Positions 1 to 60,929 of a DNA stretch of 63,181 nucleotides are shown here, one piece after another (positions within the stretch are counted from its first letter, which is position 1; every line of letters begins with the position of its first letter). The stretch lies in NCBI GenBank assembly GCA_003599795.1, contig QZJQ01000037.1:1-63181 (forward strand), written 5' to 3'. Under the pieces are notes generated by a model. That model searched no databases. It saw only the letters and a program-made list of their open reading frames with translations, and was not told where the DNA came from. The DNA is from Nitrospiraceae bacterium. Its GTDB lineage: Bacteria > Nitrospirota > Thermodesulfovibrionia > Thermodesulfovibrionales > UBA1546. Position numbers and translations under genes: made by a program.

Positions 1-103
1 AGAGATGATAGCTCCGATAGCAATGGAGAAGGAACTGAGGTTTGCCATAAGAGAGGGCGGCCGCACAGTGGGAGCAGGAGTTGTGACTGAGGTAATAGCG
101 TGA
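1..103 (+). CDS. tuf: Elongation factor Tu, C-terminal end (partial; gene starts upstream of window)
   Basis: Frame 2 reads ...[33 protein letters not shown] (TGA 101-103). This is a canonical EF-Tu C-terminus directly upstream of rpsJ. Confidence 0.9.
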
Positions 104-134
104 AAGTTAAAAGTTTAATGTTGAAAGTGAAAAG
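103..134. repeat. AT-rich word array in the tuf-rpsJ spacer
   Basis: AAAGTTAAAAGTTTAATGTTGAAAGTGAAAAG. Confidence 0.8.
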
Positions 135-137
135 ATA

Positions 138-443
138 ATGAACCAGAAAATAAGAATAAAATTAAAAGCGTACGACCACAGGGTTCTTGATAATTCCGTT
201 AAGGAAATAGTTGACACTGCACAGAGGACAGGTGCAAGGATATCGGGGCCCATTCCTCTTCCTACGCGGATAAGCAAGTTTACTGTTTTAAGGTCGCCTC
301 ATGTGGACAAAAAGTCAAGGGAGCAGTTTGAGATAAGAACGCATAAAAGACTTATAGACATATATGACCCGACACCGCAGACAGTAGATGCATTGATGAA
401 GCTGGAACTGGCTGCAGGCGTTGATGTGGAGATAAAGCTGTGA
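138..443 (+). CDS. rpsJ: 30S ribosomal protein S10
   Basis: 101 aa, [18 protein letters not shown]... It is the first gene of the S10 operon after tuf. Confidence 0.97.
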
Positions 444-1054
444 TAGGTATTTTAGGCAAGAAATTAGGCATGACACAGATATTTGCTGAAGGCGGGAAGA
501 TTGTTCCCGTTACAGTGATAGAGGCAGGGCCTTGCTGTGTTGTTCAGATTAAGACTCTTGAAAAAGACGGATACGAAGCGGTTAAGGTCGGATTCAATGA
601 AATAAAAAAAGAGAAAAAGGTCAATAAGGCATTAAGCGGAGTATTTAAAAAAGCAGGTGTCAAGCCGTACAAAATGCTTAAGGAATTTCCTATGGGAGAC
701 CTTAAGGTCGGAGACCTTGTCACTGTTGAAAAGTTTAACAAGGGAGACAATGTTTCAGTAACAGGAGTCTCCAAGGGTAAGGGTTTTCAGGGTGTTATTA
801 AGAGGCATAAATTTGCAGGCGGGCCTGCTTCTCACGGCTCTATGTTCTACCGGGCGCCGGGCTCCATAGGAGCAAGTTCGTATCCTTCAAGGGTATGGAA
901 AAACCAGAGGATGCCGGGACATATGGGCTCCGAACGCGTAACGGCAAAAAATCTTACAGTAGTGGAAATCAAACCTGACCAGAATATTCTGATGATAAGA
1001 GGCGCAGTTCCCGGGGCCTCCGGCACCTATGTGATGATAAGGAAGGAAAGCTGA
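440..1054 (+). CDS. rplC: 50S ribosomal protein L3
   Basis: GTG start overlaps the rpsJ stop. [15 protein letters not shown] is an L3 N-terminus. Confidence 0.97.
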
Positions 1055-1055
1055 T

Positions 1056-1685
1056 ATGCCTGAGATTGAGATAAAAGATATAAATAATAAAAAAGCGGGC
1101 AAGATTAATCTGCCCGAGGAAATCTTCGGACTTAAAGCAAACAGCGCTGTTATGCATGATTCCGTCATAAACTTCCTTGCCAATCAGAGGCAGGGGACTC
1201 ATGCCACAAAGACCAAAGGGCTGGTAAGCGGCGGAGGCAAGAAACCATGGAAGCAAAAGCATACAGGCAGGGCGCGTGCCGGCAGCAGCAGGTCTCCTCT
1301 GTGGAGGAGCGGCGGAACGGCATTCGGGCCGCAGCCAAGGGATTACTCTTACAGCATTCCCCGCAAGGCAAAAAATCTGGCATTGAAAAATGCGCTTTCC
1401 GCAAAACTTGCAGATGGAGAAATTACATTTATAAATGACCTTTCAATTAATAAGCCTTCAACAAAAGATATGGCGGCTATAATAAAAACCCTTGGGTTTG
1501 CGGGGCAAAGCGTGCTTATAGTGATACCTGAAAATAATAATAATATAAAGCTTTCAGCAAGAAATATTGCAGGCGTTCATGTGGCGTGCGCATCAGACCT
1601 GAATGCTTACGCAGTAATTGCTCATGACAGGCTGCTTATTACAAAGGGAGCAGTTGCAGGGATTAAGGGGGCTGAGACAGCATGA
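1056..1685 (+). CDS. rplD: 50S ribosomal protein L4
   Basis: 209 aa with KPWKQKHTGRARAGS motif; operon order fits. Confidence 0.95.
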   Translation: MPEIEIKDINNKKAGKINLPEEIFGLKANSAVMHDSVINFLANQRQGTHATKTKGLVSGGGKKPWKQKHTGRARAGSSRSPLWRSGGTAFGPQPRDYSYSIPRKAKNLALKNALSAKLADGEITFINDLSINKPSTKDMAAIIKTLGFAGQSVLIVIPENNNNIKLSARNIAGVHVACASDLNAYAVIAHDRLLITKGAVAGIKGAETA

Positions 1686-1972
1686 TAAGCCTTTATTCTG
1701 TTATTAAAAAACCGCTTTTCACTGAAAAGGGCAGCAATCTTAAGGAGTCACAAAATAAGATTCTTGTTGAGGTTGCAAAGGATGCAAATAAACTTGAGGT
1801 GAGGAAGGCTGTAGAGGAGATTTTTAAGGTTAAGGTAGAGAAGGTTGCCACTATAAATACCGCGGGAAAAATTAAGCGGCACGGCAAATCAATCGGCAGA
1901 AGGTCTGACAGGAAAAAGGCAGTAGTTACCCTTAAAAAGGGTGAAAAACTTGATTTTATAGAGGGTTCATAA
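1682..1972 (+). CDS. rplW: 50S ribosomal protein L23
   Basis: 96 aa; 4-nt overlap with rplD; position between L4 and L2. Confidence 0.93.
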
Positions 1973-2790: not shown

Positions 2791-2791
2791 A

Positions 2792-3432: not shown

Positions 3433-3473
3433 AAAATGCAAAGTTAAAACTTGCATTCCGTAGGGGGTAAATT

Positions 3474-4544: not shown

Positions 4545-4768
4545 AACCCTCAGAATTAAGGGCGTTGACAGTTGAAGAATTAAAACAAAAGGAGCAGGAT
4601 GTCAGAAAAGAGCTTTTTAACCTGAAGTTCAGGCTTGCCACAGGTGAAGTAGAAAATCCTAAGCGTATAAATGCGCTTAGAAAAGATATAGCCAAGATAC
4701 TGACAATAACAACTGAGAAGTTATCAGCCTCGGCTGATTCGCCTGAGGCGAAAAAAGTTAAAAGTTAA
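4541..4768 (+). CDS. rpmC: 50S ribosomal protein L29 with repeat-encoded C-terminal tail
   Basis: L29 core [18 protein letters not shown]... The last ~14 aa ([15 protein letters not shown]) are encoded by two GC hairpins plus AAAGTTA words. Confidence 0.9.
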
Positions 4769-4772
4769 AAAA
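4722..4772. repeat. Two GC mini-hairpins plus AAAGTTA words forming the rpmC 3' end
   Basis: ATCAGCC-tc-GGCTGAT; TCGCC-TGA-GGCGA; AAAAAGTTAAAAGTTAAAAAAG. Confidence 0.88.
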
Positions 4773-6899: not shown

Positions 6900-6983
6900 A
6901 AATAAATTTAAAATGCAAAATGCAAAGTTAAAAATTAATGAATTCCATATCTTTGAATTTTTAATTTTAAACTTTAAATTTTC
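6900..6983. repeat. AT-rich inverted word arrays in the rpsH-rplF spacer
   Basis: AAAATGCAAAATGCAAAGTTAAAAATTAATGAATTC...GAATTTTTAATTTTAAACTTTAAATTTTC. Confidence 0.85.
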
Positions 6984-6995: not shown

Positions 6996-7538
6996 ATGTC
7001 GCGGATAGGGAAAAAACCGATAGATATACCAAAAGGTGTAGATGTAAAAATTGAGGGGGCAGCTTTGAGCGTCAAAGGGCCTAAAGGCGAGCTTTCGTCC
7101 GGATTCCCCGCCGGAGTGCAGATTGAGGTTAAAGAAGGGAAGGTTGTTGTTGGAAGAACAGAGGAAACCAAGAACGTTAGGGCATTGCACGGGCTTGTAA
7201 GAAATCTTATAGCAAATATGGTATCAGGAGTCTCATCAGGTTACCAGAGAGTGCTTGAAATTACCGGCACGGGTTATAGGGCTCAGGTTCAGGGCAATAA
7301 GCTTGTGCTGGCGCTTGGATACTCTCATCCTGTAGAATTCATTCTGCCTTCCGGCATTAAGGCTGCCGTAGATCAGAAGCAGACGCAGATTACATTGACA
7401 GGCATTGACAAACAGCAGATGGGACAGATTGCAGCAGACTTAAGGGCGCTGAGGTCTCCTGATATCTATAAAGGCAAAGGGGTAAGATACGCGGGTCAGA
7501 GATTAAAGCTCAAAGTAGGCAAGGCAGGGAAAAAGTAG
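6996..7538 (+). CDS. rplF: 50S ribosomal protein L6
   Basis: MSRIGKKPIDIPKGV...; 180 aa. Confidence 0.96.
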   Translation: MSRIGKKPIDIPKGVDVKIEGAALSVKGPKGELSSGFPAGVQIEVKEGKVVVGRTEETKNVRALHGLVRNLIANMVSGVSSGYQRVLEITGTGYRAQVQGNKLVLALGYSHPVEFILPSGIKAAVDQKQTQITLTGIDKQQMGQIAADLRALRSPDIYKGKGVRYAGQRLKLKVGKAGKK

Positions 7539-7570
7539 CTGTTAGCTATAGGCTATGAGCTCATAGCTAA
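7536..7570. repeat. Degenerate heptamer array containing an 18-nt perfect palindrome (rplF-rplR spacer)
   Basis: TAGCTGT TAGCTAT AGGCTAT GAGCTCA TAGCTAA. AGCTATGAGCTCATAGCT is palindromic. Confidence 0.85.
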
Positions 7571-7993: not shown

Positions 7994-8034
7994 TATTGGC
8001 TGTCAGCTATTGGCTGAGAGCTATCAGCTATAAC
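7994..8034. repeat. Heptamer word array (rplR-rpsE spacer)
   Basis: TATTGGC TGTCAGC TATTGGC TGAGAGC TATCAGC TATAACA. Confidence 0.85.
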
Positions 8035-9024: not shown

Positions 9025-9120
9025 TAAAAATGCAAAATCATATAAGCCATATAAGGCCTGCCTGATATATGATAATCAAATTCATTAAATTTGCATTTAT
9101 AACTTTTAACTTTTAATTTC
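9025..9120. repeat. AT-rich inverted word arrays in the rplO-secY spacer
   Basis: AAAAATGCAAAATCATATAAGCCATATAAGG...ATTAAATTTGCATTTATAACTTTTAACTTTTAATTTC. Confidence 0.8.
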
Positions 9121-11421: not shown

Positions 11422-11452
11422 AAGTTAAAGGTTAGAAAGAGCAGAGGTAGAT

Positions 11453-11566
11453 ATGAAAGTTCGTTCGTCAGTAAAACCGATATGCGCTAAGTGCAAGGTT
11501 ATAAAAAGAAAAGGCGTTAGAAGAATAATATGCGAAAATCCCCGTCATAAGCAGAGGCAGGGGTAA
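11453..11566 (+). CDS. rpmJ: 50S ribosomal protein L36
   Basis: Hand-translated because it is below the ORF-track cutoff: [37 protein letters not shown]. Confidence 0.9.
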
Positions 11567-11624
11567 TGAAAACAATTAAAAGTTCAGGGTGGACAAAGTT
11601 AAAAATTAAAAGGCAGGAGTTATA

Positions 11625-19009: not shown

Positions 19010-19110
19010 TGACAGTGTCAGAGTATCAAAGTATCATTCGCCTCAGGCGAACCCGCCGAGGCGGGGAGCAACTTTGACCCTATGACACTTTGACTCTTTG
19101 ACACTTTAAC
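19009..19110. repeat. Composite element: 23-nt inverted word arms flanking two GC mini-hairpins
   Basis: Arm 19014-19036 (AGTGTCAGAGTATCAAAGTATCA) matches the reverse complement of 19083-19105 at 19 of 23 positions. The centre holds TTCGCC-TCA-GGCGAA and CCCGC-CGAG-GCGGG. Confidence 0.85.
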
Positions 19111-24220: not shown

Positions 24221-25141
24221 ATGACTGCACTCGATAAGATGAAAGAAATAACGGAATTCCTGAAAGGGCTTGGCATTGAGGATGTGCATAAGGAATCGGA
24301 GATTGTCGTGACCCATTGTCTCGGCATAGATAAGACTGTCCTTTACAGGGATAATCCCGTTCTTTCTGAAAAAAATGTAAAAGACATTGACGCTGTTCTT
24401 CAAAGGCGCGCGAAGAGGGAGCCGCTGCAATATATTATTGGCAATGTGGAATTTTGCGGCTTGAAGATAAAGGTTGGGCGGGGCGTTCTTATTCCAAGGC
24501 CTGAGACAGAATTGCTGGCAGAAGAAGTGATAAAGGCAGTTGAGAGTTATAAGTTAAAAGTTAAAAGTGAAAAAGAAATACACAACTCCAAACTCCAAAC
24601 TCCAAACTCCAAACTGCGAGTCCTTGACCTTTGCACAGGAAGCGGGTGCCTTGCGCTTGCAATAGCAAAGAACTTTCCTGATGCCAAGGTATACGGAACT
24701 GACATATCAAAAGATGCAATAAGGTATGCAAATGAGAACGCAGAGCTTAACGCAATAACGAATGTGACATTTCTTAAAGGCTCGCTGTTTGAGCCCTTAA
24801 AACAAATCATCTTTTCCGGCACTCTGTCCTTTAAGTTCGATGTGATTGTCTCAAACCCTCCGTATATCAGAAGCTGCGACATGCCGAATCTTCAGCCTGA
24901 GATAAATAAGTGGGAGCCAAGGAATGCTCTTGACGGCGGCGAGGACGGGCTCAGCTATTACAGGACGATACTTTCAGAGGCGCGCGCATACCTGATGCTC
25001 AGCGGAGTTATCTTTCTTGAAATCGGAGAAGGACAGGCAGAGGAAGTCTCGGAAATCGCCGTGCGGAATTGTTTCCGGAATATCTCTGTTATTAAGGACT
25101 ATTCAGGCATAGAGAGAATAATAGCGGCAAGAGCATTATAG
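24221..25141 (+). CDS. prmC: Release factor glutamine methyltransferase with in-frame repeat insertion
   Basis: IPRPETE, VLDLCTGSGCLALAIA and NPPY motifs. About 20 extra aa sit between the PRPETE helix and the SAM motif. Confidence 0.92.
   Translation: MTALDKMKEITEFLKGLGIEDVHKESEIVVTHCLGIDKTVLYRDNPVLSEKNVKDIDAVLQRRAKREPLQYIIGNVEFCGLKIKVGRGVLIPRPETELLAEEVIKAVESYKLKVKSEKEIHNSKLQTPNSKLRVLDLCTGSGCLALAIAKNFPDAKVYGTDISKDAIRYANENAELNAITNVTFLKGSLFEPLKQIIFSGTLSFKFDVIVSNPPYIRSCDMPNLQPEINKWEPRNALDGGEDGLSYYRTILSEARAYLMLSGVIFLEIGEGQAEEVSEIAVRNCFRNISVIKDYSGIERIIAARAL
24548..24615. repeat. In-frame tandem word array inside prmC: AAGTTAAAAGTTAAAAGTGAAAAAG plus (AACTCCA)x4.6
   Basis: Four perfect AACTCCA copies at 24584-24611. 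The 16-mer AAGTTAAAAGTTAAAA is identical to 4755-4770. Confidence 0.9.
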
Positions 25142-36401: not shown

Positions 36402-36410
36402 TTGACGTTT

Positions 36411-36439: not shown

Positions 36440-36450
36440 TTCTATTGGTA

Positions 36451-36520
36451 GTTGAAAGTCAGAAGTTAGAAGTTAAGAGTTTTTTAATTTTTAACTTTTA
36501 ATTTTTCACTTTCAACTTTA
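36451..36520. repeat. AT-rich word array as inverted arms (aprA-qmoA spacer)
   Basis: GTTGAAAGTCAGAAGTTAGAAGTTAAGAG...TTTTTAACTTTTAATTTTTCACTTTCAAC. Confidence 0.85.
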
Positions 36521-36543
36521 AACTGTGCTTTTTGGAGGATAAG

Positions 36544-41225: not shown

Positions 41226-41285
41226 CAGTGACAGTGGACGGTGCCGGTTTTTTTGCTGACACTGACATTAAGCGCTGACACTAAA
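41226..41285. repeat. TGACAGTG/CTGACACT word array in the qmoC-CBS spacer
   Basis: CAGTGACAGTGGACGG..TTTTTTTGCTGACACTGACATTAAGCGCTGACACT. Confidence 0.75.
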
Positions 41286-41301
41286 ATAGGAGGTCTGACC
41301 G

Positions 41302-45979: not shown

Positions 45980-46966
45980 TCAGATTCCCTCAATCACCGC
46001 CGCTGCCAGAAGCGGGAACATTATCTCGTGATGGCCTGTGAGGGCATATGAGCATCCTTTTTGCATGGTAGGCCTTTTAAGGACATTTTGATGAGGCCTG
46101 TAGTGCTGGACAAAATCCATATTCACTGTGGTAATGTTTTCAACTTTGCTGCCGAGGTTTCTCGCCACGGTCAATGCCTTTAAAAAAACTTCAGGCATAA
46201 TGACAGCAGATCCTAAATTTATATAAACGCCGCCCTCAAGGTCTGATATTACGGATGTCAGGAGTTTGAAATCTCTAAGGCTTCCCTCGCCGATAGCTCT
46301 GCCGTCTGCCTGCGGATGCATGTGGATTATGTCCGTGCCTACTGCAACATGGACAGTTGCAGGGATTTTAAGCTTATATGCAGAGCCGAATATGCTCATT
46401 TCCCTGTACTTGAATCTTGTCGCCTCAGGCGACTCGCCGGGGCGAGAATTCTGAATCATCCAGCCGAGTGACTTCCCAATGCCGTAACCTTTCTTTGCCC
46501 CGCTGTTTATAGCCTTGTTGATATATTCTCCTGTCTCCTTTGCCATTCCAAAAGTGCCCTTGCACAACTCCTCTGCAACGTCTTCTGAGGTCTTACCTGT
46601 GTATGACAGTTCAAAATCATGGACAATGCAGGCGCCGTTTGTTGCAATTGCGGTTATTATGCCTTTGTTCATAAGGTCCGTTATAACAGGAGATAACCCC
46701 ACTTTTATCGGATGAGCTCCCATTCCGAGGATTACGGGCCTTTTGTTCTTCCTTGCCTTTATTATTGCCTTTACAATTAATTTGAAGTTTCGTGCCGCAA
46801 GCGCATCAGGCAGGTTATTAATAAAGCCCTTGAATGAATGTCCGGCTTCATGCGGGATTGCTGAGAGTGAAACCTCTACTTTGCTCTTTCTTTTTGATAG
46901 AGAATAGGTCCTGATTTTTTTAAGCGAAATAGGAGTATATTTTTTCATCGTGCTGAATTTTAACAT
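45980..46966 (-). CDS. Deoxyhypusine synthase-like family protein
   Basis: ILGMGAHPIKVGLSPVITDLMNKGIITAIATNGACIVHDFE resembles the bacterial DHS-like (PF01916) family. It carries a 27-nt double-hairpin insert. Confidence 0.6.
   Translation of the reverse strand: MLKFSTMKKYTPISLKKIRTYSLSKRKSKVEVSLSAIPHEAGHSFKGFINNLPDALAARNFKLIVKAIIKARKNKRPVILGMGAHPIKVGLSPVITDLMNKGIITAIATNGACIVHDFELSYTGKTSEDVAEELCKGTFGMAKETGEYINKAINSGAKKGYGIGKSLGWMIQNSRPGESPEATRFKYREMSIFGSAYKLKIPATVHVAVGTDIIHMHPQADGRAIGEGSLRDFKLLTSVISDLEGGVYINLGSAVIMPEVFLKALTVARNLGSKVENITTVNMDFVQHYRPHQNVLKRPTMQKGCSYALTGHHEIMFPLLAAAVIEGI
46419..46445. repeat. Two adjacent GC mini-hairpins in-frame inside the DHS-like gene
   Basis: GTCGCC-TCA-GGCGAC plus TCGCC-GG-GGCGA; 27 nt = 9 codons, encoding RPGESPEAT. 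Confidence 0.85.
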
Positions 46967-48257: not shown

Positions 48258-48791
48258 CTACATGCCATAGACTATTCCGGCGCGTATTTCAGAAGCCAGA
48301 TTTCTCATAGCAGTTTCCGTTGCCTGCTCTTTTGCCGCAACCAAACTTTCTATATTGCCTGAACCTGAAAAAGATACAATAAAAACCCCTGTATTTCTTA
48401 ACTCTTTAACCTTCCCGTCAGGGGATGTAAGAAAAAATCTGGCTTTTATAATTACCTGATATTCGGATGCTACTCCTTCTTTTTCTGCCAGTGGGTTTAG
48501 CTTCAGGTCATCTATAGTGCCGCTTATTATATGTTTCGCGCTGCTTGAGATCATCATGCCGTTTCTTATGAGTTCATCCGCAAGCGCTTTCTGAAATTTA
48601 TCTTCTAATTTCGGTTCAAATGTCTTGTTTTCAATCCTGCCTATTTTGACAGAGGTAAAGGGCAGCGTGTCTCTGCCCTGCAGGGTATAACCGCAGCCAG
48701 CTAATAGAAATGCAAAATTAAAAATTAAAAGTGCAAAATTAATGAAAAATTTTGAATTTTGGATTGAATTTTTGAATTTTGATTTTTCCAT
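48258..48791 (-). CDS. lptE: LPS-assembly lipoprotein LptE
   Basis: Lipobox LLAGC followed by GYTLQGRD. Sits between leuS and holA. The N-terminal ~33 codons lie in word-repeat DNA. Confidence 0.8.
   Translation of the reverse strand: MEKSKFKNSIQNSKFFINFALLIFNFAFLLAGCGYTLQGRDTLPFTSVKIGRIENKTFEPKLEDKFQKALADELIRNGMMISSSAKHIISGTIDDLKLNPLAEKEGVASEYQVIIKARFFLTSPDGKVKELRNTGVFIVSFSGSGNIESLVAAKEQATETAMRNLASEIRAGIVYGM
48706..48788. repeat. AT-rich word array forming the 5' end of lptE
   Basis: AAATGCAAAATTAAAAATTAAAAGTGCAAAATTAATGAAAAATTTTGAATTTTGGATTGAATTTTTGAATTTTGA. The 14-mer AATTTTGAATTTTG is shared with 49314-49327. Confidence 0.88.
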
Positions 48792-48797
48792 TTTAAT

Positions 48798-51413
48798 TTA
48801 TATTACTATATTAACAAGTTTGCCTTTAACAATAAAGACTTTTTTCAGCGCTTTCCCCTTTAAAATTTCCTGTATCTTAGGTTCGTCAAGAGCTTTCTCC
48901 CTCACATCATCGTCGGGGAGCCCGGCAGGTATCATAATCTTTGCCTTTACTTTGCCGTTAATCTGAATAACGAGCTCTATTTCTTCCTCTTGTGCGATGC
49001 TCTCATCCCATAGAGGCCATTTCTGTTCAAGTATGCTTTTTTTGTTGCCTATGGATTCCCACAGTTCTTCCGATATATGCGGAGAAAATGGAGAAAGCAA
49101 AAGCACAAGCGTCTCAATGCCGAATCTGAATGCTTTCCAGTCGCTGTCTGATTTTGGTTCAAATGAGCTTAGATCATTCACAAGCTCCATAAGCGCTGCA
49201 ATCGCTGTATTGAAGTGGTATTCGCGCTCTATGTCGTTTGTAACCCGTTTTATGGTCTGATGAGTCTTTCGTAAAAGGCTGACAGCCGACAGCTGACAGT
49301 TTGAAAGTTCTTCAATTTTGAATTTTGCATTTTGAATTTGAACTTTGTTTTTATAGACTATTCCCCATATCCTGTTCAAAAACCTGTAAGCTCCCTCAAC
49401 TCCCTGGTCAGACCATTCAAGGTCCCTTTCAGGCGGCGCTGCAAAGAGCGAGAAGAGCCTTGATGTGTCTGAGCCGTATCTGTTTATAAGATGGTCAGGG
49501 TCAATGACATTCTTCTTTGATTTTGACATCTTCTCAACCCGTCCTATGTCAACAGCCTTTCCGCATTTTATGCACTTCTCATCCTTAACATCTTCAGGCA
49601 AAAGCCAGCCGTGCTCAGGACATTTCAATGTTTCCTTGCATACCATTCCCTGCGTGAGAAGGTTTGTGAAAGGCTCCGGAGAGTTAATGATGCCAAGGTC
49701 TTTTATAACACGGGTAAAGAACCTTGAATAGAGGAGATGCAGCACTGCGTGTTCAACGCCGCCGACATACTGGTCAACAGGCATCCAGTAACTTATTGGG
49801 GATTGGGGATTGGGGGTTAGGGATTGGAAATCAATCTTACCATTGTCAACGCAATATGCAACAAAATACCATGATGAATCAACAAATGTGTCCATAGTAT
49901 CCGTCTCACGTCTTGCCTTGCCTTTGCATTTTGGACAAATTGTATTTACAAATTTTTCTGACTCTGCAAGCGGTGACCCGCCTGTGCCTGTGAATTTCAC
50001 ATCCTCGGGAAGGATTACCGGCAGTTCTTGCTCAAGGACCGGAACAACACCGCATTGCTCACAATAAATTACCGGTATAGGCGTTCCCCAGTATCTCTGC
50101 CTTGATATTCCCCAGTCACGGAGCTTGTAATTTACTACCCTTTTGCCAAGGCCTTTTTTCTCTATGTGCTTTGCTATCTCTATTCGTGCAACGTCACTTT
50201 TTAGCCTGCTGTATGAACTTGAGTCAATGAGAACCCCATCTTCTTCGAACGCAGCTTCAAGCTCGTGAGGGTTCGAGGGAAGAATTGTATTTTCACTTGA
50301 CCCCTTGACTCCTTGTCTCCTCTGCGACTCGCCTGAGGCGAGACCCCTTGACTCCTGTACTATTACTTCCCTTATCGGCAGCTTGTACTTCTTTGCAAAC
50401 TCAAAATCCCGCTGGTCATGCGCAGGAACTGACATTATAGCTCCTGTGCCGTATTCCATCAGAACAAAGTTTGCTATATAAATTGGAATCTTCTCATCAT
50501 TAGCCGGATTGACTGCATAGTGCCCTGTAAAGAGCCCAATTTTTTCATCTTCCTTGCCGTAGTGCTCTTTGATTTTTTTAATTGCTTCCTTATCAGCGAC
50601 GAGTTTTTCTGCCAGTGGATGTGTTGGCGCAAGGCACACAAAGGTCGCGCCAAAAAGCGTATCTGCCCTTGTAGTAAATATGCGGATTTTTTCGTCTCTT
50701 CCGGCAACTTTGAAATCAGCCTCAAGCCCCTCGCTTTTCCCAATCCAGTTTTTTTGCATTAAGACTACTTTTTCAGGCCAGCCCTTAAGCTCATCACACG
50801 CCTTCAGAAGGTCTTCCGCATATTGCGTGATTCTGAAGAACCACTGCTCCAACTCTTTCTTGATTACGGCTGTATCGCATCTCCAGCATCCATTGTCAAT
50901 AACCTGCTCGTTTGCAAGAACAGTCATGCATGAAGGGCACCAGTTCACAAATGACGATTTTCTGTATGCAATCCCCTTCTCATACATCTTCAGGAAGAAC
51001 CACTGATTCCACTTGTAGTAATCAGGGCTGCATGTTGTAACCTCTCTGTCCCAGTCATAGCTGAGTCCGAGCTGGTTGAGCTGTTTTTTCATGTATGCGA
51101 TATTTTCGTAGGTCCATTTTGCAGGGTGGATACCCTCTTTTATCGCGGCGTTCTCAGCAGGCATTCCGAAGGCATCCCATCCCATCGGATGAATAACGTT
51201 AAAACCGCACATTCTTTTATATCTTGCGATTACGTCGCCGATTGCATAATTCCTGACATGGCCCATGTGGATTTTCCCTGAAGGGTAGGGGAACATTTCA
51301 AGGCAGTAGAATTTCTTTTTTGAAGAGTCTGCTTCAGTTTTGAAGATATTTCTCTCAGCCCAGTACTTCTGCCACTTCTGTTCAACTTTTTGCGGATTGT
51401 ATCGTTCTTCCAA
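48798..51413 (-). CDS. leuS: Leucyl-tRNA synthetase
   Basis: HMGHVRNY and KMSKSKKN class I motifs. A TTG start at 51413 after GGAG gives [18 protein letters not shown]. The 32 upstream ORF codons are unlikely to be coding. Confidence 0.95.
49279..49345. repeat. In-frame word arrays inside leuS (CTGACAG x3; TTTTGAA/TTTTGCA words)
   Basis: CTGACAGCCGACAGCTGACAG then CAATTTTGAATTTTGCATTTTGAATTTGAACTTT. Encodes [27 protein letters not shown]. Confidence 0.88.
49795..49827. repeat. In-frame heptamer array inside leuS: (ATTGGGG)x3 GTTAGGG ATTGG
   Basis: Three perfect heptamers at 49795-49815. Encodes [11 protein letters not shown]. Confidence 0.9.
50267..50357. mobile_element. Candidate miniature element in-frame inside leuS, with the same octamers as the four-helix-bundle gene arms plus a TCGCC hairpin
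   Basis: GGGTTCGAGGG (50269-50279), 16 nt, CTTGACCCCTTGACTCCTTG (50296-50315), CTCGCC-TGA-GGCGAG (50328-50342), ACCCCTTGACTCCTG. Confidence 0.6.
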
Positions 51414-56886: not shown

Positions 56887-56892
56887 AATTGT

Positions 56893-57570
56893 ATGAAGAA
56901 CAAAAAACTACTCTCAATCTGCGATAAACTCTTCAAATTCTTCGGCCCGCAGAACTGGTGGCCGGGCGATACGCCTTTTGAGATTGCCGTCGGCGCGATA
57001 CTTACGCAGAATACGAACTGGGGAAATGTAGAGAAGGCGATAAATAACCTTAAAAAAGCGAACGTCCTGAACTCAAAGGCAATCCACGATATGCCAGTAA
57101 AAAAACTTGCCTCATTAATACAGCCGTCTGGTTATTTTAATATCAAAGCAAAAAGGCTTAAGTCATTTATTAATTTCCTTATGAACGATTATCACGGAAG
57201 CATGAAGAATATGAAAAAGGAAGAAATGCATTCGCTCAGGGAAAAACTTCTCAGTGTCAATGGCATCGGGCCTGAGACAGCAGATTCAATTCTTCTCTAT
57301 GCTCTTGATAAACCCATTTTTGTTATTGACGCATATACCAAGAGGGTTCTTTCAAGGCATAATATTTTAGGGCATGATGAGGCATACGATAAATTTCAGG
57401 AGCTTTTCCATCTGTCTCTGAAAAAGGATGTAAAACTTTTTAATGAGTATCATGCGCTTTTTGTGAGAGTAGGGAAAATGTTTTGTAAGCCCAAGCCGAG
57501 ATGCGAAAAATGCCCGTTAAAAGAAAGGGTCAAAGGCTTCAAGGGTTCAAGGGTTCGAGTGAGATGCTAA
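56893..57570 (+). CDS. HhH-GPD superfamily (endonuclease III-related) DNA glycosylase
   Basis: LLSVNGIGPETADSILLY..VID HhH-GPD motif; FeS loop CKPKPRCEKC. The last 15 codons lie in the octamer array. Confidence 0.8.
   Translation: MKNKKLLSICDKLFKFFGPQNWWPGDTPFEIAVGAILTQNTNWGNVEKAINNLKKANVLNSKAIHDMPVKKLASLIQPSGYFNIKAKRLKSFINFLMNDYHGSMKNMKKEEMHSLREKLLSVNGIGPETADSILLYALDKPIFVIDAYTKRVLSRHNILGHDEAYDKFQELFHLSLKKDVKLFNEYHALFVRVGKMFCKPKPRCEKCPLKERVKGFKGSRVRVRC
57527..57559. repeat. Left arm: ~4 tandem octamers GGGKTCRA
   Basis: GGGTCAAA GGCTTCAA GGGTTCAA GGGTTCGA G. Confidence 0.9.
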
Positions 57571-57926
57571 AGAACTTTAAAGATTTAAAGGTCTGGCAAA
57601 AATCCTATGAGTTATCTTTGGAAATTTACAGGATTACAAAGAGATTTCCTTTAGAAGAAAAATATGGTCTCACGTCACAGATAAGAAGAGCGGCAGTATC
57701 TGTCACATCCAATATTGCAGAAGGATACGCAAGAAAAACAAGGCCGGAATATATTCAGTTCTTATATGTAGCTTATGGTTCTAACTGTGAGTTGGAGACT
57801 CAGATTTTGCTGTCTGGCGATTTAGGCTATATTAAAAGTGAAGAACTTAAACAACTTCAGGAGGAGATTAGTGAGATTGAAAGAATGTTAAAGGCTCTTA
57901 TTAAATCTCTGGAGGATAAAACTTGA
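57564..57926 (+). CDS. Four-helix-bundle protein (23S rRNA intervening-sequence protein / Avd-like family)
   Basis: 120 aa; FKDLKVWQKSYELSLEIYRITKRFPLEEKYGLTSQIRRAAVSVTSNIAEGYAR...YGSNCELETQ is the classic PF05635-type signature. Confidence 0.85.
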   Translation: MLKNFKDLKVWQKSYELSLEIYRITKRFPLEEKYGLTSQIRRAAVSVTSNIAEGYARKTRPEYIQFLYVAYGSNCELETQILLSGDLGYIKSEELKQLQEEISEIERMLKALIKSLEDKT

Positions 57927-57954
57927 CCCCTCGACCCCTTGACCCCTCGACCCC
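57922..57954. repeat. Right arm: ~4 tandem octamers, inverted relative to the left arm
   Basis: CTTGACCC CTCGACCC CTTGACCC CTCGACCC C. Its reverse complement is GGGGTCGA/GGGGTCAA x4. Confidence 0.9.
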
Positions 57955-58795
57955 TATTCGTGTTCTTTCCCTTGGATATTCTCCTTGCCCCAATGACACC
58001 TTTATTTTCTATGCGCTTGTACACGGGATGATAGACACCGGCGATTTGAAGTTTAATGAAATCCTCCTTGATGTTGAGACACTGAACCAAACGGCCTTGA
58101 AAGGCAAGCTTGATATAACAAAAGTTTCATATAATGCATTCGGGAATCTGAGGGATGATTACTGCCTTCTCCGCTCAGGCGGCGCGCTTGGAAGAGGATG
58201 CGGACCCTTGGTTGTGTCTTCAAAAGAATGTGAAATGAAAGATTTGAAAGGAAAGACAATAGCAATTCCCGGAGAGCTTACCACAGCGTATCTTCTTTTA
58301 CAGCTTTATGACCCTGATTTCAAAAATAATGTGCAAGCTATGCCGTTTAGTGAGATTATGGGAGCAGTGAAGAATGGAAAAGTTGATGCAGGGCTTATAA
58401 TCCATGAGAGCAGATTTACATATCCTTTGTACGGGCTAAAAAAAATAATTGACCTCGGAGAATGGTGGGAAAAAAAGACAGGGCTTCCCATCCCTCTTGG
58501 CTGCATAATCGCAAAGAGAAATCTCGGAATAGAATTAACAGAAAAGCTGGAAAGGCTGATAAGAGAGAGCGTGCAATATGCTATGAGCCGCCCTGAGATG
58601 CTGATGGCGAAATATATAAAAGAGCATTCACAGGAGCTTGATGATTCGGTTATTGAAAAACATATCAAGCTCTATGTCAATGATTATTCAATTGACATTG
58701 GCGATGACGGTATAAGGGCCGTAAGGAAACTTCTTGATATGGCAGAGGAGAGAGGGATAATAAAAAAATCAGCGATGCCTTTATTTATTGTTTAA
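57923..58795 (+). CDS. mqnD: 1,4-dihydroxy-6-naphthoate synthase (futalosine pathway), MqnD-like
   Basis: LSLGYSPCPNDTFIFYALVHG signature. The only in-frame start is TTG 57923, inside the right arm. Confidence 0.7.
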   Translation: MTPRPLDPSTPIRVLSLGYSPCPNDTFIFYALVHGMIDTGDLKFNEILLDVETLNQTALKGKLDITKVSYNAFGNLRDDYCLLRSGGALGRGCGPLVVSSKECEMKDLKGKTIAIPGELTTAYLLLQLYDPDFKNNVQAMPFSEIMGAVKNGKVDAGLIIHESRFTYPLYGLKKIIDLGEWWEKKTGLPIPLGCIIAKRNLGIELTEKLERLIRESVQYAMSRPEMLMAKYIKEHSQELDDSVIEKHIKLYVNDYSIDIGDDGIRAVRKLLDMAEERGIIKKSAMPLFIV

Positions 58796-59425
58796 ACTGA
58801 TTCTCGGCAGAAATCTCGGCACCTGCTTCATATATTCAATATATTCATCGCCGAATATTTTTATCAGCCTTTTTTCTTCCATGAATGCGCCGAAAATGAA
58901 GTAGATGTCCGCAAGGATGCTCACTGTAAGCCAGTTCCTTGTAATATTAGGCTCAAACGTGAAAATAATTATTCCCGCCAGGTAAAGCGGATGCCTGACA
59001 ATGCCATAAACGCCTGTCTTAACAAGCCTTGCCTGCGTTATCCCTTCAACATCTCCTTTAATCTCTTTTTTTGTCATATATCTCCAGACCTGCGCGATTC
59101 CCAAAAATTCATGAGAGTTTATTACTTTAAAAGAAAGAATGCCGAATATAAGGCCTGAAATCTGAATTGAATGCATTATCCACCTGAACCATGCCGGCCC
59201 CGTGAGCAGATAAATATCAGGAATCATATTTATCAGATGTGCGGCGATGGCTGCTGTAATGACGCTGAAGCAGGTATAGACGAACCTGTAGAAAACCTTC
59301 ACAAATGTCTCACCCAAAAGCCTCTGTGTTTGGGACTTGATGAAAGATGTCACGCAGAGACTGTGGATAAAGGCAAATGATAAGAATACCAGTATCACTC
59401 TGCCTGTGGCCTCATGCCATATCAT
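58781..59425 (-). CDS. ICMT/PEMT-like membrane methyltransferase family protein
   Basis: GVYGIVRHPLYLAGIIIF motif; multi-TM. Confidence 0.65.
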   Translation of the reverse strand: MIWHEATGRVILVFLSFAFIHSLCVTSFIKSQTQRLLGETFVKVFYRFVYTCFSVITAAIAAHLINMIPDIYLLTGPAWFRWIMHSIQISGLIFGILSFKVINSHEFLGIAQVWRYMTKKEIKGDVEGITQARLVKTGVYGIVRHPLYLAGIIIFTFEPNITRNWLTVSILADIYFIFGAFMEEKRLIKIFGDEYIEYMKQVPRFLPRISLNNK

Positions 59426-59579
59426 GTAAGTATTGTATACTAATCAGCTTCATTCATAAAACCGCTTAACCCGGATATTGTCCGGATTCGTCTTGCCGGC
59501 CGCTAATCTGCATTTGCTCCCTATTTTCGTATTGCTGAAACAAAAACCAGTAAGCTATACTTTATAATCAGCAGTTAAA

Positions 59580-59596
59580 TCCCGATAATATCGGGA
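59580..59596. promoter_or_regulatory. Perfect palindrome just upstream of the MgtE-sensor gene RBS
   Basis: TCCCGAT-aat-ATCGGGA ends 1 nt before AGGAGA. Confidence 0.35.
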
Positions 59597-59608
59597 CAGG
59601 AGATAGTG

Positions 59609-60871
59609 ATGCCTTTTTTCAGCGAACTTTTTGTGAGCGAGATATTAAAGAAACCGGTACTTGATCCGAGAGGCGAAGAACTCGGCAGGGTGAAGGACCT
59701 TGTTGTTGTTAAGGGAGACCCCTTGCCGAAGGTTTCAAGCCTTGTCCTTGAGAAGAAAAGAAAGCTCTTTAATCTCCCGTGGAGTGATTTGAGCATCTTT
59801 AACAAAAGGATAATCTCTGCAAATGTCTATACCGAAGCTCTCCGGCACTATGAATTCAGGGATGAAGACCTTCTTTTAGTCAGGGATATTTTTGATAAGC
59901 AGATAGTTGATGCAAACGGGGCCAAGGTTGTCAGAGTTAATGACGTAAAGCTTGAAGGGCTTAACACAGAGGCTGTGCTTGTTGCTGCTGATGTAGGCAT
60001 GAGGGGAATAATGAGAAGGATGGGCGTTGAAAGAGGCGGAGAAGATTTTATAAGGCTTTTCAGGGCGCAGCTGCCGTATAACCTTATAGGCTGGAACTAT
60101 ATACAGCCGCTTGAGCCTAAACTCACTGCAATATCCCTTACAGTGCCGCGGCAGATGGTTTCTGAACTGCATCCTGCGGATCTGGCGGCAATAATAAGCC
60201 AGGTATCCCATAAAGATGGCGCTACATTCTTTAAAGACCTTGATGTTGAGACAGCAGCGGAAGCGCTCTCAGAGCTTGAGCCTGACACGCAGGCGGCCAT
60301 AATAACTGGCATGGACACTGAAAAAGCGGCAGACATTATAGAAGAAATGCCTCCTGACGAAGCGGCTGATGTATTGAGCGATCTGTCTTCAGAAAAAGCG
60401 CAGGAAATTCTCGGCAGCCTTGAAAAGGAAGATGCAGAGGACATTCAGGAACTCTTAGAACATGAGGAGGATACCGCAGGCGGCATTATGACTAATGACT
60501 TTATAGCATACAGGCCTGAAATAACAGTGAGAGAAGCTATGGAGAAATTCAGGCATGACGCCGAAGAAGTTGAAACCGTCTATTACATATACGTTACGGA
60601 TGAAGAAGAGAAGCTTAAAGGAGTTGTTTCTCTCAGGGAACTGCTCTTGTCGGCGCCTGAGATAAAGCTGTCTGAAATTATGGAGACCAAGCTCAAGAAG
60701 GTAACACCTGAGACTGATGAGATGAGAGTTGCAGGAATCATATCAAAGTATAACCTTGTTGCTATTCCTGTGGTTGACCGCGAGGGGTTTATGCTCGGCA
60801 TTGTGGATATAGATGATATTATAGATACAATCCTGCCGCCGGCAGCAAAACGCAAGAGGAGAAGAGTATAA
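59609..60871 (+). CDS. Soluble PRC-barrel + MgtE N-domain + CBS-pair protein (MgtE cytosolic sensor without the membrane domain)
   Basis: LHPADLAAII..ETAAEALSELEPD..AADVLSDLSSEKAQEIL is an MgtE_N acidic repeat, followed by two CBS motifs. There are no TM helices. Confidence 0.8.
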   Translation: MPFFSELFVSEILKKPVLDPRGEELGRVKDLVVVKGDPLPKVSSLVLEKKRKLFNLPWSDLSIFNKRIISANVYTEALRHYEFRDEDLLLVRDIFDKQIVDANGAKVVRVNDVKLEGLNTEAVLVAADVGMRGIMRRMGVERGGEDFIRLFRAQLPYNLIGWNYIQPLEPKLTAISLTVPRQMVSELHPADLAAIISQVSHKDGATFFKDLDVETAAEALSELEPDTQAAIITGMDTEKAADIIEEMPPDEAADVLSDLSSEKAQEILGSLEKEDAEDIQELLEHEEDTAGGIMTNDFIAYRPEITVREAMEKFRHDAEEVETVYYIYVTDEEEKLKGVVSLRELLLSAPEIKLSEIMETKLKKVTPETDEMRVAGIISKYNLVAIPVVDREGFMLGIVDIDDIIDTILPPAAKRKRRRV

Positions 60872-60876
60872 GAATA

Positions 60877-60929
60877 CAAGTTAAAAGTTACGAATTAAAA
60901 GTTAGAAGTTAGAATCTAAAATCTAAAAC
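60877..60929. repeat. AT-rich word array
   Basis: CAAGTTAAAAGTTACGAATTAAAAGTTAGAAGTTAGAATCTAAAATCTAAAAC. Confidence 0.85.

Follow-up and report, generated by a model that had tools for sequence, protein, structure and literature searches.

Tandem heptamer and octamer arrays in a Nitrospirota sulfate reducer and their association with a four-helix-bundle gene

Tandem heptamer and octamer arrays stand 7- to 40-fold above chance in the DNA of a Nitrospirota sulfate reducer, of which a stretch of 63,181 nucleotides (the window) was analysed. With modest confidence, their words are assigned to a single class of repeat elements that form hairpins, either as its arms or as remnants of one arm; the full form of the element is a cassette with a four-helix-bundle (4HB) gene. 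The preliminary description left the spreader unnamed and listed the 4HB gene merely as a candidate. The field is now narrower, as this gene alone follows the arrays in physical location, in phylogeny and in word.

The window gives 25 TRF rows of period 7/14/21 (mean 1.9, maximum 4 in 20 block shuffles) and 9 of period 8/16 (mean 1.5, maximum 3). The genome, a fragmented metagenome-assembled genome of 1.40 Mb in 63 contigs and 75% complete, contains 341 arrays of period 7/14/21 against 40-55 in two composition-preserving control sets, which bears out the suggested over-representation of the words relative to shuffled sequence. Its rows number 309 for period 7 (27-47 in controls), 92 for period 14 (8-13), 23 for period 21 (0-1), and 110 for period 8 (43-48). 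All 22 sites tabulated in the preliminary description carry the words given there, each coordinate having been inspected, and four or so of the 22 window TRF loci (28923, 31160, 38673, and 43481) are ordinary coding sequence at chance level. Acidobacteriota and other phyla also have arrays of this kind at high density. The likeness drawn to the STRR of heterocystous cyanobacteria holds for the tandem heptamers and their excess, but not for the host, which is a Nitrospirota member.

The five discrete families first proposed dissolve into 98 canonical heptamers, with three large similarity groups: AAAGTTA (76 loci), GATGCAG/ATCATGC (50 loci), and the octamers GGGTTCRA/TTGACCCC (24 loci). The string AAGTTAAAAGTTAAAA is common to 4755 and 24551, and AAAATGCAAAGTTAAAA to 3433 and 6917. 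Such shared strings of 13-16 nt do link distant copies, but they mostly follow from the shared words and are a weak sign of copying. The 18-mer GGGGTTAGGGATTGGAAA, which includes a non-repeat end and lies at both 33833 (sat-aprB spacer) and 49813 (leuS array), is better evidence of copying. Inverted arms, earlier called usual, are present at about two thirds of window loci; across the genome the share falls to about half of the real loci. Two or more arrays occur at 107 of 325 genome loci, and a hidden partner array was found at 17 of 218 single-array loci. Folding energies fall under -0.2 kcal/mol per nt at most multi-array loci (90 of 106), and the median z is -5.4. Within ORFs, hairpins fold less stably in the sense strand, and spacer hairpins have no sense-strand stability bias (23 vs 29).

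The full cassette of the window (57525-57955) lies between nth and mqnD, a junction of 471 nt here and 37 nt in the relative G001. Its left arm is translated as the C-terminal tail and stop codon of the HhH-GPD glycosylase (nth) and contains the 4HB ribosome-binding site, and mqnD takes its TTG start codon and roughly its first 11 codons from the right arm. The arms pair at -41 kcal/mol, while shuffled arms give -21.7 +/- 3.7. The closest solved homologue of the 4HB protein is Xanthomonas XCC0516 (PDB 2GSC). The closest homologues of the window protein, with 70-77% identity, are from Nitrospinota, Kuenenia, and Planctomycetota, and have the same octamer arms.

Table 1. Arrays, hairpins and cassette parts in the window, with their settings
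Feature	Position	Strand	Setting
Direct (AAAGTTA)x5 array, no inverted partner	103..138	+	ends at rpsJ start codon
Small AAATGCAAAG/CTTGCATT hairpin	3433..3462	+	rplV-rpsC spacer
Twin GC hairpin TCAGCCTCGGCTGA TTCGCCTGAGGCGAA	4724..4752	+	within array encoding rpmC tail
(AAAAGTT)x2.6 array	4753..4770	+	holds rpmC stop codon
AAAATGC/AAAGTTA vs TTTAAAT/TTTTAAT hairpin	6900..6982	+	fills rpsH-rplF spacer
TAGCTGT/TAGCTAT...CATAGCTA hairpin	7536..7569	+	begins at rplF stop codon
GGCTGTCAGCTAT/GGCTGAGAGCTAT hairpin	7994..8024	+	rplR-rpsE spacer
Arms AAAATGCAAAAT ... ATTTGCATTT plus (TAACTTT)x2.4	9025..9116	+	upstream of secY
Direct arrays AAGTTAAAGGTTAG and AAAGTTAAAAATTAAAAG	11422..11620	+	either side of rpmJ (infA-rpmJ-rpsM spacers)
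Long GTGTCAG/AGTATCA hairpin, dG -47 kcal/mol, twin GC hairpin at apex	19010..19107	+	efp-accB spacer
In-frame AGTTAAA + (AACTCCA)x4.6 tract	24545..24615	+	prmC, PrmC_N / methyltransferase domain junction
GGTTAGGGGTTGG / CCCTAACCCCTAACC hairpin	33820..33864	+	sat-aprB spacer
Near-perfect 30-bp hairpin, AAGTTAG words	36451..36524	+	downstream of aprA
Inverted words CAGTGACAGTG ... CTGACACTGACA	41226..41290	+	spacer
Twin GC hairpin copy	46420..46446	-	in ORF 45980-46966
AAATGCAAAATTAAAAATT / AATTTTGAATTTTG hairpin	48706..48799	+	leuS stop to lptE start
In-frame array pair, GACAGCC and AATTTTG words	49279..49347	-	leuS
In-frame (ATTGGGG)x4.7 array	49795..49827	-	leuS
In-frame cargo-free octamer hairpin GGGTTCGA ... 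CTTGACCCC plus twin-GC-hairpin half	50267..50357	-	hypervariable leuS loop
Cassette left arm GGGTCAAA GGCTTCAA GGGTTCAA GGGTTCGA	57525..57556	+	
4HB gene, PF05635 / TIGR02436, 120 aa	57564..57926	+	
Cassette right arm CTTGACCC CTCGACCC x2	57922..57955	+	
Direct AAGTTAA/AAGTTAG/AATCTAA arrays	60877..60928	+	upstream of Nramp gene

Spacer arrays (Table 1) occupy the gap from a stop codon to the next ribosome-binding site, including those of highly expressed operons. Among congeners with 84-90% identical coding DNA, orthologous sites are empty, filled, or carry different words. The rplV-rpsC spacer has 41 nt here vs 7-8 nt in G001, G002, and G014. The rpsH-rplF spacer is empty (15 nt) in G001 and has hairpins of other words in G008, G002, and G014, and G014 and G012 have an empty rplR-rpsE spacer of 3-8 nt. 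Four other word families are found at the rplF stop-codon site of four relatives. Words are replaced in the infA-rpmJ-rpsM spacers of G001 and G002, and the sat-aprB spacer of G001 and G008 has GTGTCAG hairpins instead. Relatives have unrelated sequence downstream of aprA and other words between leuS and lptE, where G002 has a twin GC hairpin as well.

In-frame arrays occupy three sites in leuS and also occur in prmC, in the tails of rpmC and nth, and in the mqnD head. Their tolerance in essential genes, as previously described, was confirmed for leuS and prmC against orthologues, the length differences of 54 and 78 nt being divisible by three; occupancy in LeuS was checked across 26 relatives. 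The leuS tract at 49279 is a constant 81 nt in congeners and hypervariable across the order, the site at 49795 is occupied order-wide with different words (AACTCTC, AAATCCG, and AAATCTC), and the site at 50267 has no insert in G001. The prmC tract has a length of 111 nt in three congeners, G002 among them with different words, and of 57 nt in G001. In rpmC, whose stop codon lies in its array, the L29 profile stops 15 residues earlier.

The twin GC hairpin, 27-30 nt long, consists of two short GC-rich palindromes; it is nested in arrays and polymorphic among relatives. The genome has 18 copies vs 0 in controls, with one instance nested in itself. In the family, 17 of 18 genomes have it, and G012 does not. 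The copy in the rpmC tail is shared with G001 and missing from G008 and G002.

Both 4HB genes of this genome, and ~26 of 29 in relatives, lie in array hairpins. In a sample of 118 4HB loci from many phyla, biased towards kin of the window protein, 7/8-mer arrays border 96 loci on one side or more and 60 on both sides, with complementary left and right words in 45 of the 60. Gene and arms co-diverge. An arm word is shared by 93.5% of 4HB pairs with at least 70% protein identity, 50% at 55-70%, 18.5% at 45-55%, and 2.6% below 45%. The identical gene-plus-arm cassette type is found at unrelated sites in different phyla. GGGAATC/GGGATTC is a published dispersed word of Xanthomonas, Dokdonella, and Luteimonas genomes (PMC4692102); as predicted, these have a single 4HB gene between accB and accC with this word on its flanks. 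Gene and arrays are also co-distributed, within the limits of related genomes that are not independent data points: five complete same-order genomes without the gene are at background array density, and 6 or 7 of 8 same-order carriers have 2-5.5 arrays per 10 kb (0.4-1.0 in shuffles). Truncated 4HB remnants inside hairpins are decay intermediates that connect full cassettes with empty hairpins, and the loops of empty octamer hairpins are similar to cassette ends.

The excess of arrays over 4HB genes (>100 to 1) counts against the link, as does the complete genome G001, with two 4HB genes and many words. This assembly, 75% complete, contains no 4HB gene cognate to either of its two largest word groups, AAAGTTA and GATGCAG. 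Despite five 4HB copies, G019 shows no array excess, several phylum-level genomes carry the gene but lack arrays near secY, and the array-rich MAG042 (L001) has only a sub-threshold 4HB match. The gene is missing from nine of 50 genomes with (GGGAATC)x4. In Parabeggiatoa, TAACTGA arrays occur in the absence of a 4HB gene, and four other genomes showed no 4HB gene with TAACTGA arms. The reported absence of transposase, integrase, and reverse transcriptase holds for the window and for the assembled genome. Reverse transcriptase and TnpB are excluded as spreading enzymes, and a complete congener rich in arrays has no Y1 transposase. No target-site duplication, copying enzyme, or observed movement was found.

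It is unlikely that the arrays are ordinary simple-sequence repeats, formed by local slippage at AT-rich spacers or palindromes and with arms kept alike by template switching in the hairpin, so that nothing is mobile and the 4HB genes are incidental. Concerted evolution in situ is indeed seen at one leuS site, where an old array is retained throughout the order as its word changes (AATCCCC, AACTCTC, AAATCCG, and AAATCTC). The diversity of heptamers, the copy number differences between Coxiella strains (PMC4990558), and the lack of target duplications and of an enzyme also agree with slippage. It leaves the preference for 7 and 8 nt over 5, 6, and 10 unexplained, and does not fit the lack of excess in same-order complete genomes of similar composition without 4HB, unrelated word families in the same spacer of congeners, the cassettes at unrelated sites in different phyla, or the 18-mer shared by distant loci with its non-repeat end. 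Selection for host regulatory or structural sites is doubtful to a slightly greater degree. The arrays would be multimeric protein-binding sites (possibly for a 4HB pentamer) or intercistronic stems for mRNA processing, stability, termination, or translational coupling, and a non-parasitic 4HB gene would be autoregulated by its own arms. The exact placement in stop-to-ribosome-binding-site gaps of highly expressed operons, direct AAAGTTA arrays adjoining start codons (103, 11567, and 60877), the 4HB ribosome-binding site in its own arm, the co-divergence of words and protein, and published regulatory readings of similar arrays (PMC4679880, PMC2700814, and PMC4692102) suit this reading. In contrast, presence/absence and wholesale word swaps among congeners, and the spacers left empty in G001 and G012, indicate that no individual site is needed; spacer hairpins are unbiased in strand, and the in-frame copies of leuS and prmC lack obvious regulatory logic.

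REP/REPIN-like hairpins, above all the twin GC hairpin, moved by a Y1 (HUH) RAYT/IS200-type transposase acting on single-stranded hairpins, are an improbable source. Y1_Tnp genes occur in G002 (2 copies), G008 (7), and G014 (3), and the paired, polymorphic, once self-nested palindromes fit this reading. However, Y1_Tnp was not found in this 75%-complete genome or in the complete, array-rich G001, which itself has the twin GC hairpin. Most REPs have a GTAG or CGTC tag at one end (PMC3733652), whereas aligned twin GC hairpin copies do not start with either, and heptamer periodicity is foreign to REPs. Assembly or binning artefacts, conceivable in a fragmented metagenome-assembled genome, are extremely improbable. 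The same tracts recur, often base for base, at orthologous sites in independently assembled relatives (prmC in G008; leuS arrays in G001 and G008), which argues against an artefact, and they keep long reading frames open.

In the favoured reading of hairpin-forming elements, the full-length element would be a PF05635 gene in the loop of an inverted tandem 7-/8-mer stem. Most copies are gene-free, as empty hairpins or lone arrays, and at least part of these would descend from cassettes via internal deletion. Elements are presumed to be copied to new sites, with the 4HB protein recognising its cognate words and being needed for spread or upkeep. Copies would survive where tolerated, in stop-to-ribosome-binding-site gaps and, if stop-free and a multiple of three in length, in permissive protein loops or termini. 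A resident array would change by slippage and homogenisation, with its words drifting in concert, and would also be quickly deleted or replaced. The twin GC hairpin would be a second, family-restricted element that inserts into arrays. The cassette resembles the rRNA intervening sequence (IVS) in having a 4HB gene in the loop of a stem, which here consists of inverted tandem 7-/8-mers. RNase III cleaves the heptamer-armed 4HB stem of the Coxiella IVS (PMC4990558). An RNase III gene is present in this organism, and by analogy the enzyme may cut long stems in transcripts, which would account for the weaker sense-strand hairpins in ORFs. In print, the link between arrays and a 4HB gene is confined to the Coxiella 23S intervening sequence.

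The tandem runs of 7- or 8-nt words in this DNA (arrays), some of them paired as inverted arms into hairpins, are best read as a fast-turning-over population of heptamer and octamer hairpin elements, with IVS-like cassettes that carry a PF05635 four-helix-bundle (4HB) gene as its full-length members. The same best reading also includes a second small hairpin element, nested within this population. The words named in the preliminary description are seen at all 22 of its 22 positions, and the strings said to be shared by distant copies are present as 16-18-mers. Their claimed over-representation is borne out, with period-7/8 arrays far above shuffled controls in both window and genome. The comparison with STRR is apt for tandem 7-mers at many dispersed loci and is otherwise too narrow.

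The genome (G000) is a MAG of 1.40 Mb in 63 contigs, 75% complete, with 44% G+C, and the window is its contig C1. The window contains the S10-spc-alpha ribosomal-protein operons, efp-accB-accC, prmC, sat-aprBA with Qmo/Hdr-like genes, an H+-pyrophosphatase, leuS-lptE, an HhH-GPD glycosylase, mqnD, mgtE, and an Nramp gene. The closest SecY match, at 87% identity, is a Nitrospirota MAG, and together with the sat-aprBA sulfate-reduction genes this indicates a sulfate-reducing Nitrospirota and not a cyanobacterium, so that the heterocystous-cyanobacterial setting of STRR does not apply. Purine loading is strong on the coding strand throughout window 1-63181 (GC skew about +0.15 to +0.27, AT skew up to +0.23), and the sign of the skew reverses where the genes are minus-strand (27-30 kb and 48-54 kb).

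Within the window, TRF returns 25 rows of period 7/14/21 against a mean of 1.9 (max 4) in 20 block shuffles, with 21 rows for period 7 alone, and 9 rows of period 8/16 against a mean of 1.5 (max 3). About four of the window's TRF loci are no better than chance. The rows for the whole of G000 number 309 for period 7 (27-47 in two controls), 92 for period 14 (8-13), 23 for period 21 (0-1), and 110 for period 8 (43-48). The merged heptamer-type arrays amount to 341; 130 are fully intergenic against 3 expected, and crude ORF calling places 172 within ORFs against 37-52 expected. These ORF arrays, together with in-frame copies verified in leuS and prmC, depart from the essentially intergenic location of STRR. 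The 325 loci use 98 canonical heptamers. All-against-all comparison yields three large similarity groups: an AAAGTTA group with 76 loci, a GATGCAG/ATCATGC group with 50, and an octamer group, GGGTTCRA...TTGACCCC, with 24. Words with stop codons in both orientations make up 52 of 111 intergenic arrays, well above random 7-mers (two thirds stop-free per strand), and ORF-array words are mostly stop-free on the sense strand, a count that is skewed by the crude ORF caller and is not taken as evidence. Five Acidobacteriota secY loci have 8-13 heptamer arrays per 7 kb in their ribosomal-protein operon spacers, many as perfect inverted pairs such as AAAGATG x4.3 facing TTCATCT x4.3.

The 325 loci comprise 446 period-7/8 arrays, and 107 loci hold at least two. 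Folding below -0.2 kcal/mol per nt is observed for 90 of the 106 foldable multi-array loci (median z -5.4), and a hidden inverted partner occurs at only 17 of 218 single-array loci. After allowing for about 95 chance singles, roughly half of the real loci of G000 are hairpins. The description of arrays as usually inverted arms thus suits about two thirds of the window loci and only half of the real loci genome-wide. By our reading of the sequences, each unit has one regular mismatch when the arms pair in the GATGCAG/ATCATGC and octamer groups. In spacers, hairpin stability does not differ between the strands (23 vs 29), which indicates palindromes at the DNA level; selection for sense-strand RNA stems in spacers, expected after the 36451 hairpin to show as G:U-tolerant sense stems, is rejected. 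Hairpins in ORFs fold worse on the sense than on the antisense strand (12 vs 30, p = 5e-4), and the sense RNA stem inside genes looks weakened. Directly after aprA, ahead of the 36451 array hairpin, lies a GGGGAGGGC-TCG-GCCCTCCCC stem that resembles an ordinary terminator, with a counterpart at the same place in two congeners (G001 and G008).

Positions of the features discussed (G000 is the genome of the window; the other G numbers are related or further genomes, C numbers their contigs)
Feature	Genome and contig	Position	Remark
Terminator-like stem	G000, window	36402-36450	after aprA
leuS site 3	G000, window	49279-49347	array-derived segment
leuS site 2	G000, window	49795-49827	array-derived segment
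leuS site 1	G000, window	50267-50357	array-derived segment; hypervariable hot spot
nth-mqnD junction	G000, window	57500-57970	insertion hot spot
Cassette	G000, window	57525-57955	4HB gene plus octamer arms, four octamers per side
4HB gene	G000, window	57564-57926 (+)	PF05635, 144 bits (cut-off 33.8); TIGR02436, E = 4e-41
Second 4HB copy	G000, C58	8756-9103	between TAGCTCA/TGAGCTA heptamers
RNase III gene	G000, C16	250-633	
Self-nested twin GC hairpin	G000, C27	499	
Hairpin with 4HB remnant	G002, C29	56658	first ~28 codons only, in loop
Hairpin with 4HB remnant	G011, C238	22459	first ~28 codons only, in loop
4HB 3' half beside CRISPR-like array	G024, C1	1505900-1506700	repeat GTCCCAGCGGACATCCCTGACGTCAGGGACTGAAAC

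The spacers were compared with those of three congeners (G001, G002, and G008; coding DNA 84-90% identical) and of two other genera (G014 and G012). Depending on the genome, one and the same spacer is empty, filled, or filled with unrelated words among these five relatives. At rpsH-rplF, the spacer of the window (96 nt) is close in length to that of G008 (97 nt), with shorter ones in G002 (78 nt) and G014 (59 nt); in G001 it has 15 nt and contains no array. Between rplF and rplR, the words are TAGCTAT in the window, AAAGTTG in G008, AAATTCA in G001, and AGGTGTC/ACCTAAA in G002. Spacer arrays start at the stop codon and finish short of the ribosome-binding site, and no target-site duplication is evident at the empty/filled pairs among the compared relatives. 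The nth-mqnD junction has 471 nt in the window against 37 nt in G001, where glycosylase and mqnD overlap at ATGA. This hot spot holds the 4HB cassette in G000 and is empty in G001; G008 (C21) and G002 (C30) have different, unrelated inserts of 215-250 nt each.

The in-frame copies show similar replacement. A LeuS alignment with 26 relatives contains three array-derived segments. Site 1 has no insert in G001, AACTCCG arrays in three relatives, ATTCACCG, GAGCCAC or GCAGAAG arrays in further relatives, a CCCCCCTT...AAGGGGGG palindrome in four, and in one genome (G030) an octamer hairpin resembling that of the window. Site 2 is filled across the order with differing words (AATCCCC, AACTCTC, AAATCCG, and AAATCTC), a drift that is in-place concerted evolution. 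The prmC tract is 111 nt long in three congeners, of which G002 has other words, and shorter in G001 (57 nt). All in-frame length differences are divisible by three. Array sequence also supplies the codons for the last 15 residues of L29, the glycosylase tail, and the first ~11 codons of MqnD. At five LeuS loci of relatives, the loops that match sites 1 and 2 contain another kind of palindromic insert, CCCCCCTTwCC...AAAGGGGGG, whose translation reads PPLPPFAKGGRGG / SPPFNPPLGKGGQRGG and which in some relatives is nested within a heptamer array; it resembles a further, third small mobile hairpin inserted in frame. Rickettsia palindromic elements (RPE), reportedly described by Ogata et al. in 2000, are said to lie in frame in housekeeping genes and to be translated as extra surface segments, and the present elements share with them palindromic repeats in frame in such genes. 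RPEs are conserved 100-150-nt sequences, not tandem short words, and we know of no gene linked to them.

The second element is a twin GC hairpin of 27-30 nt, with consensus CCCGCCTCGGCGGG-TTCGCCTGAGGCGAA, located inside arrays. nhmmer gives 18 matches at E <= 1 in G000 against none in two shuffled genomes, and a strict perfect-stem scan only 6 copies. The copy in the rpmC tail is present in the window and G001 and missing from G008 and G002; one in the lptE-leuS spacer occurs in G002 only, and one within the leuS AACTCTC array of one relative adds 30 nt in frame. One G000 copy is self-nested. The 13-nt core occurs 1-28 times in each of 17 of the 18 genomes of the host family; G012 lacks it, and the order's other families have almost none. 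Elhai et al. are said to have described in 2008 the small dispersed repeats (SDR) of Nostoc punctiforme as mobile 21-27-nt insertions without a coding gene, reportedly often within tandem heptamer arrays and hairpins. This behaviour is shared by the twin GC hairpin, whose sequence, however, is unrelated and confined to one Nitrospirota family.

The 4HB protein of the window has 2GSC (Xanthomonas XCC0516, E = 5e-27) as its nearest PDB entry. Inverted repeats of at least 20 bp enclose its ORF, as in IVS-type stems; the arm duplex has -41.1 kcal/mol against -21.7 +/- 3.7 for shuffled arms, and the minimum-energy structure of the whole 451-nt unit also has the arms paired. The cassette sits between nth and mqnD and not in helix 25 or 45 of 23S rRNA, and a position within rRNA is also rejected for the cassettes of relatives, as four loci gave no Rfam rRNA match. 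G000 has only one other 4HB copy, with heptamers as stem units. Among 30 relatives, the copy number ranges from 0 to 7 per genome; of the 29 copies inspected, about 26 lie between arrays on both sides, and each has a word of its own. The nearest homologues, at 70-77% identity, belong to Nitrospinota, Ca. Kuenenia, Planctomycetota, and another Nitrospirota genome, and all have GGGGTCAA/GGGTTCAA-type arms at unrelated places. In a 118-locus sample that covers many phyla and is skewed to relatives of the query protein, a 7/8-mer array lies on at least one flank at 96 loci and on both at 60; at 45 of these 60, the words of the two flanks are complements of each other with at most one mismatch. Protein pairs with at least 70% identity share the arm word in 93.5% of cases, falling to 50% at 55-70% identity, 18.5% at 45-55%, and 2.6% below 45%.

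Arm words of the cassette recur at the 24 octamer loci. The loops of the empty octamer hairpins open with GAGWGAATGA and close with TTTTAC/TTTCAC, like the two ends of the cassette, and two hairpins in other genomes retain truncated 4HB genes. From these remnants and loop ends, the octamer group, if not the others, appears to derive by deletion from the form that carries the gene. Shared ends and partly deleted genes are traits of MITE-like non-autonomous derivatives; the target-site duplication and transposase-type enzyme expected of these were not found at the compared sites and in the assembled part of G000, respectively. Another partial gene, a 3' half in G024, adjoins a CRISPR-like array and recalls a report of PF05635 genes in cas loci (PMC3936711).

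Gene and arrays largely go together within the order. Five complete genomes without PF05635, G012 among them, have array densities equal to their shuffles, and of eight genomes that carry the gene, six or seven reach 2-5.5 arrays per 10 kb vs 0.4-1.0 in shuffles; among these gene-bearing genomes, G019 has no array excess and G026 only a slight one. G012, of the same family as the array-rich genera, lacks the 4HB gene, the arrays, and the twin GC hairpin. Across phyla, the genome has a 4HB gene for 14 of 16 secY loci with at least three arrays vs 17 of 34 array-poor ones (our tally), and the gene is present in 41 of 50 genomes with (GGGAATC)x4, these co-distribution counts being non-independent through shared kinship. 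One genome labelled as a Thermoplasmata archaeon MAG has (GGGAATC)x4 arrays and 17 PF05635 matches, and represents either the system in an archaeon or a mixed bin.

If the dominant word of a genome accompanies its 4HB gene, GGGAATC flanks are expected for the one copy in Xanthomonas, and they were found. X. euroxanthea and X. arboricola have the gene between accB and accC, with GGGAATC arrays to the left and an inverted array to the right, and in Dokdonella and Luteimonas the word at this location is GGGATTC. The parallel expectation for TAACTGA failed: PF05635 is absent from Parabeggiatoa, and the 4HB genes of Microcystis, Polaribacter, Marinifilum, and Christiangramia have other words, with no TAACTGA-armed copy detected. 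The 75%-complete G000 holds a cognate 4HB copy for the octamer and TAGCTCA words and none for the AAAGTTA and GATGCAG groups, and GATGCAG-type arms flank a 4HB gene in G001. A strict rule of one word family to one cognate gene fails for TAACTGA and, in the assembled part of G000, seems to fail for AAAGTTA and GATGCAG.

The preliminary description had proposed a search for co-occurring TnpB, Y1, and four-helix-bundle genes, and only the last tracks the arrays. A reverse transcriptase acting in a DGR/Avd-type mechanism is rejected, PF00078 being absent from G000 and three complete congeners, as is TnpB, absent from all six genomes tested, G000 included; the assembled part of G000 contains no RT, TnpB, or Y1_Tnp. 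Movement of the hairpins by a Y1 (HUH) transposase, in the fashion of REP/REPIN with RAYT, is a weak alternative. Y1 genes do occur in several relatives (G002, G014, and G008, the last with 7 matches on C23, C24, and C1), but are absent from G000, from the complete and array-rich G001, and also from G012. REP/REPIN are short dispersed palindromes in spacers, sometimes in inverted pairs (PMC3116915, PMC3733652); here, the aligned copies lack the GTAG/CGTC tag, the arms are tandem-periodic, and complete array-rich genomes lack Y1. On the best reading, the array elements would spread by copying, and the 4HB protein may have a role. That PF05635 proteins are word-specific trans-acting factors of a ubiquitous, cross-phylum class of selfish hairpins, each lineage recognising its own 7-8-nt word and promoting array spread or retention, is offered tentatively and is rather unlikely.

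To our knowledge, heptamer repeats have been noted in cyanobacteria since 1990, and later in Xanthomonas, Geobacter, and Beggiatoa, with no origin or agent found, and we know of no function assigned to the 23S IVS ORF since 1993. Mazel et al. reportedly described STRR in 1990 as short tandemly repeated repetitive heptamers of Calothrix/Nostoc. Like the arrays of these cyanobacteria, those found here consist of tandem heptamers with several word families per genome at hundreds of dispersed loci, mostly between co-directional genes. In contrast to STRR, they occur in another phylum, about half of the loci are inverted pairs, and many copies are translated in frame; a linked gene family and decay intermediates are also identified. 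Nostoc PCC 7120 has GGGGA(C/T)T heptamer arrays (PMC4692102). The dispersed Xanthomonas heptamer GGGAATC forms 70-75 inverted pairs per genome, and species differ in length with the type kept; it was described as G-quadruplex-forming and under-represented in coding regions, with no gene linked (PMC4692102), whereas here this word is found on the flanks of the one PF05635 gene that Xanthomonas species have.

In Coxiella burnetii, the 23S IVS has an S23p (PF05635) gene behind three GACAGAT heptamers and a 28-bp stem cut by RNase III, and the unit number differs among strains (PMC4990558). A selfish or mobile nature, with the ORF serving mobility, was proposed long ago for the ORF-bearing 23S IVS of Coxiella and Leptospira (Ralph and McClelland 1993, as relayed in PMC4990558). 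The cassette is similar in having a PF05635 gene in the loop of an inverted-repeat stem with tandem short units, and differs in lying between and partly inside protein genes instead of rRNA, in its octamer arms, and in its more than 100 accompanying gene-less hairpins. In Beggiatoaceae, cyanobacteria, and Bacteroidetes, TAACTGA forms direct repeats that are intergenic, abut start codons, are patchy across phyla, and go with spacers longer than in close relatives (PMC4679880). The present arrays share these features, but TAACTGA repeats are almost all direct, not inverted, with no PF05635 gene found in TAACTGA arms. The GGGACCG arrays and paired triple repeats of Geobacter metallireducens, like the present elements, include tandem heptamers both between and within genes (49 places in Geobacter) and paired sites on opposite strands; they were read as regulator binding sites (PMC2700814), an account with no gene-family link or turnover analysis. 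Published arrays of Calothrix/Nostoc, Xanthomonas, Geobacter, Beggiatoaceae, and Bacteroidetes lack an agent (PMC4692102, PMC4679880, PMC2700814), and no paper generalising the gene-array link was found in the literature searched.

The arrays lengthen and diversify loops of essential proteins (LeuS, PrmC), donate stop and start codons to adjoining genes, and probably break up assemblies and misdirect gene callers. Two puzzles, the origin of the arrays and the function of the IVS ORF, are joined in a lineage with many near-complete sister genomes by the gene within the repeats, the co-divergence of words, gene-less sister genomes without repeats, and decay intermediates from cassette to empty hairpin. 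A descriptive oddity thereby becomes open to test in tractable carriers such as Xanthomonas and Pedobacter, the hypotheses being word-specific binding, processing by RNase III, and dependence of array dynamics on the gene. If the tentative role of PF05635 proteins as word-specific factors is true, cyanobacterial STRR, Xanthomonas GGGAATC, the arrays of Acidobacteria and Nitrospirota, ORF-bearing 23S IVS, and in-frame "repeat loops" of housekeeping proteins would be one phenomenon, and the orphan PF05635 family, which includes the DGR accessory protein Avd, would gain its first function outside retroelements.
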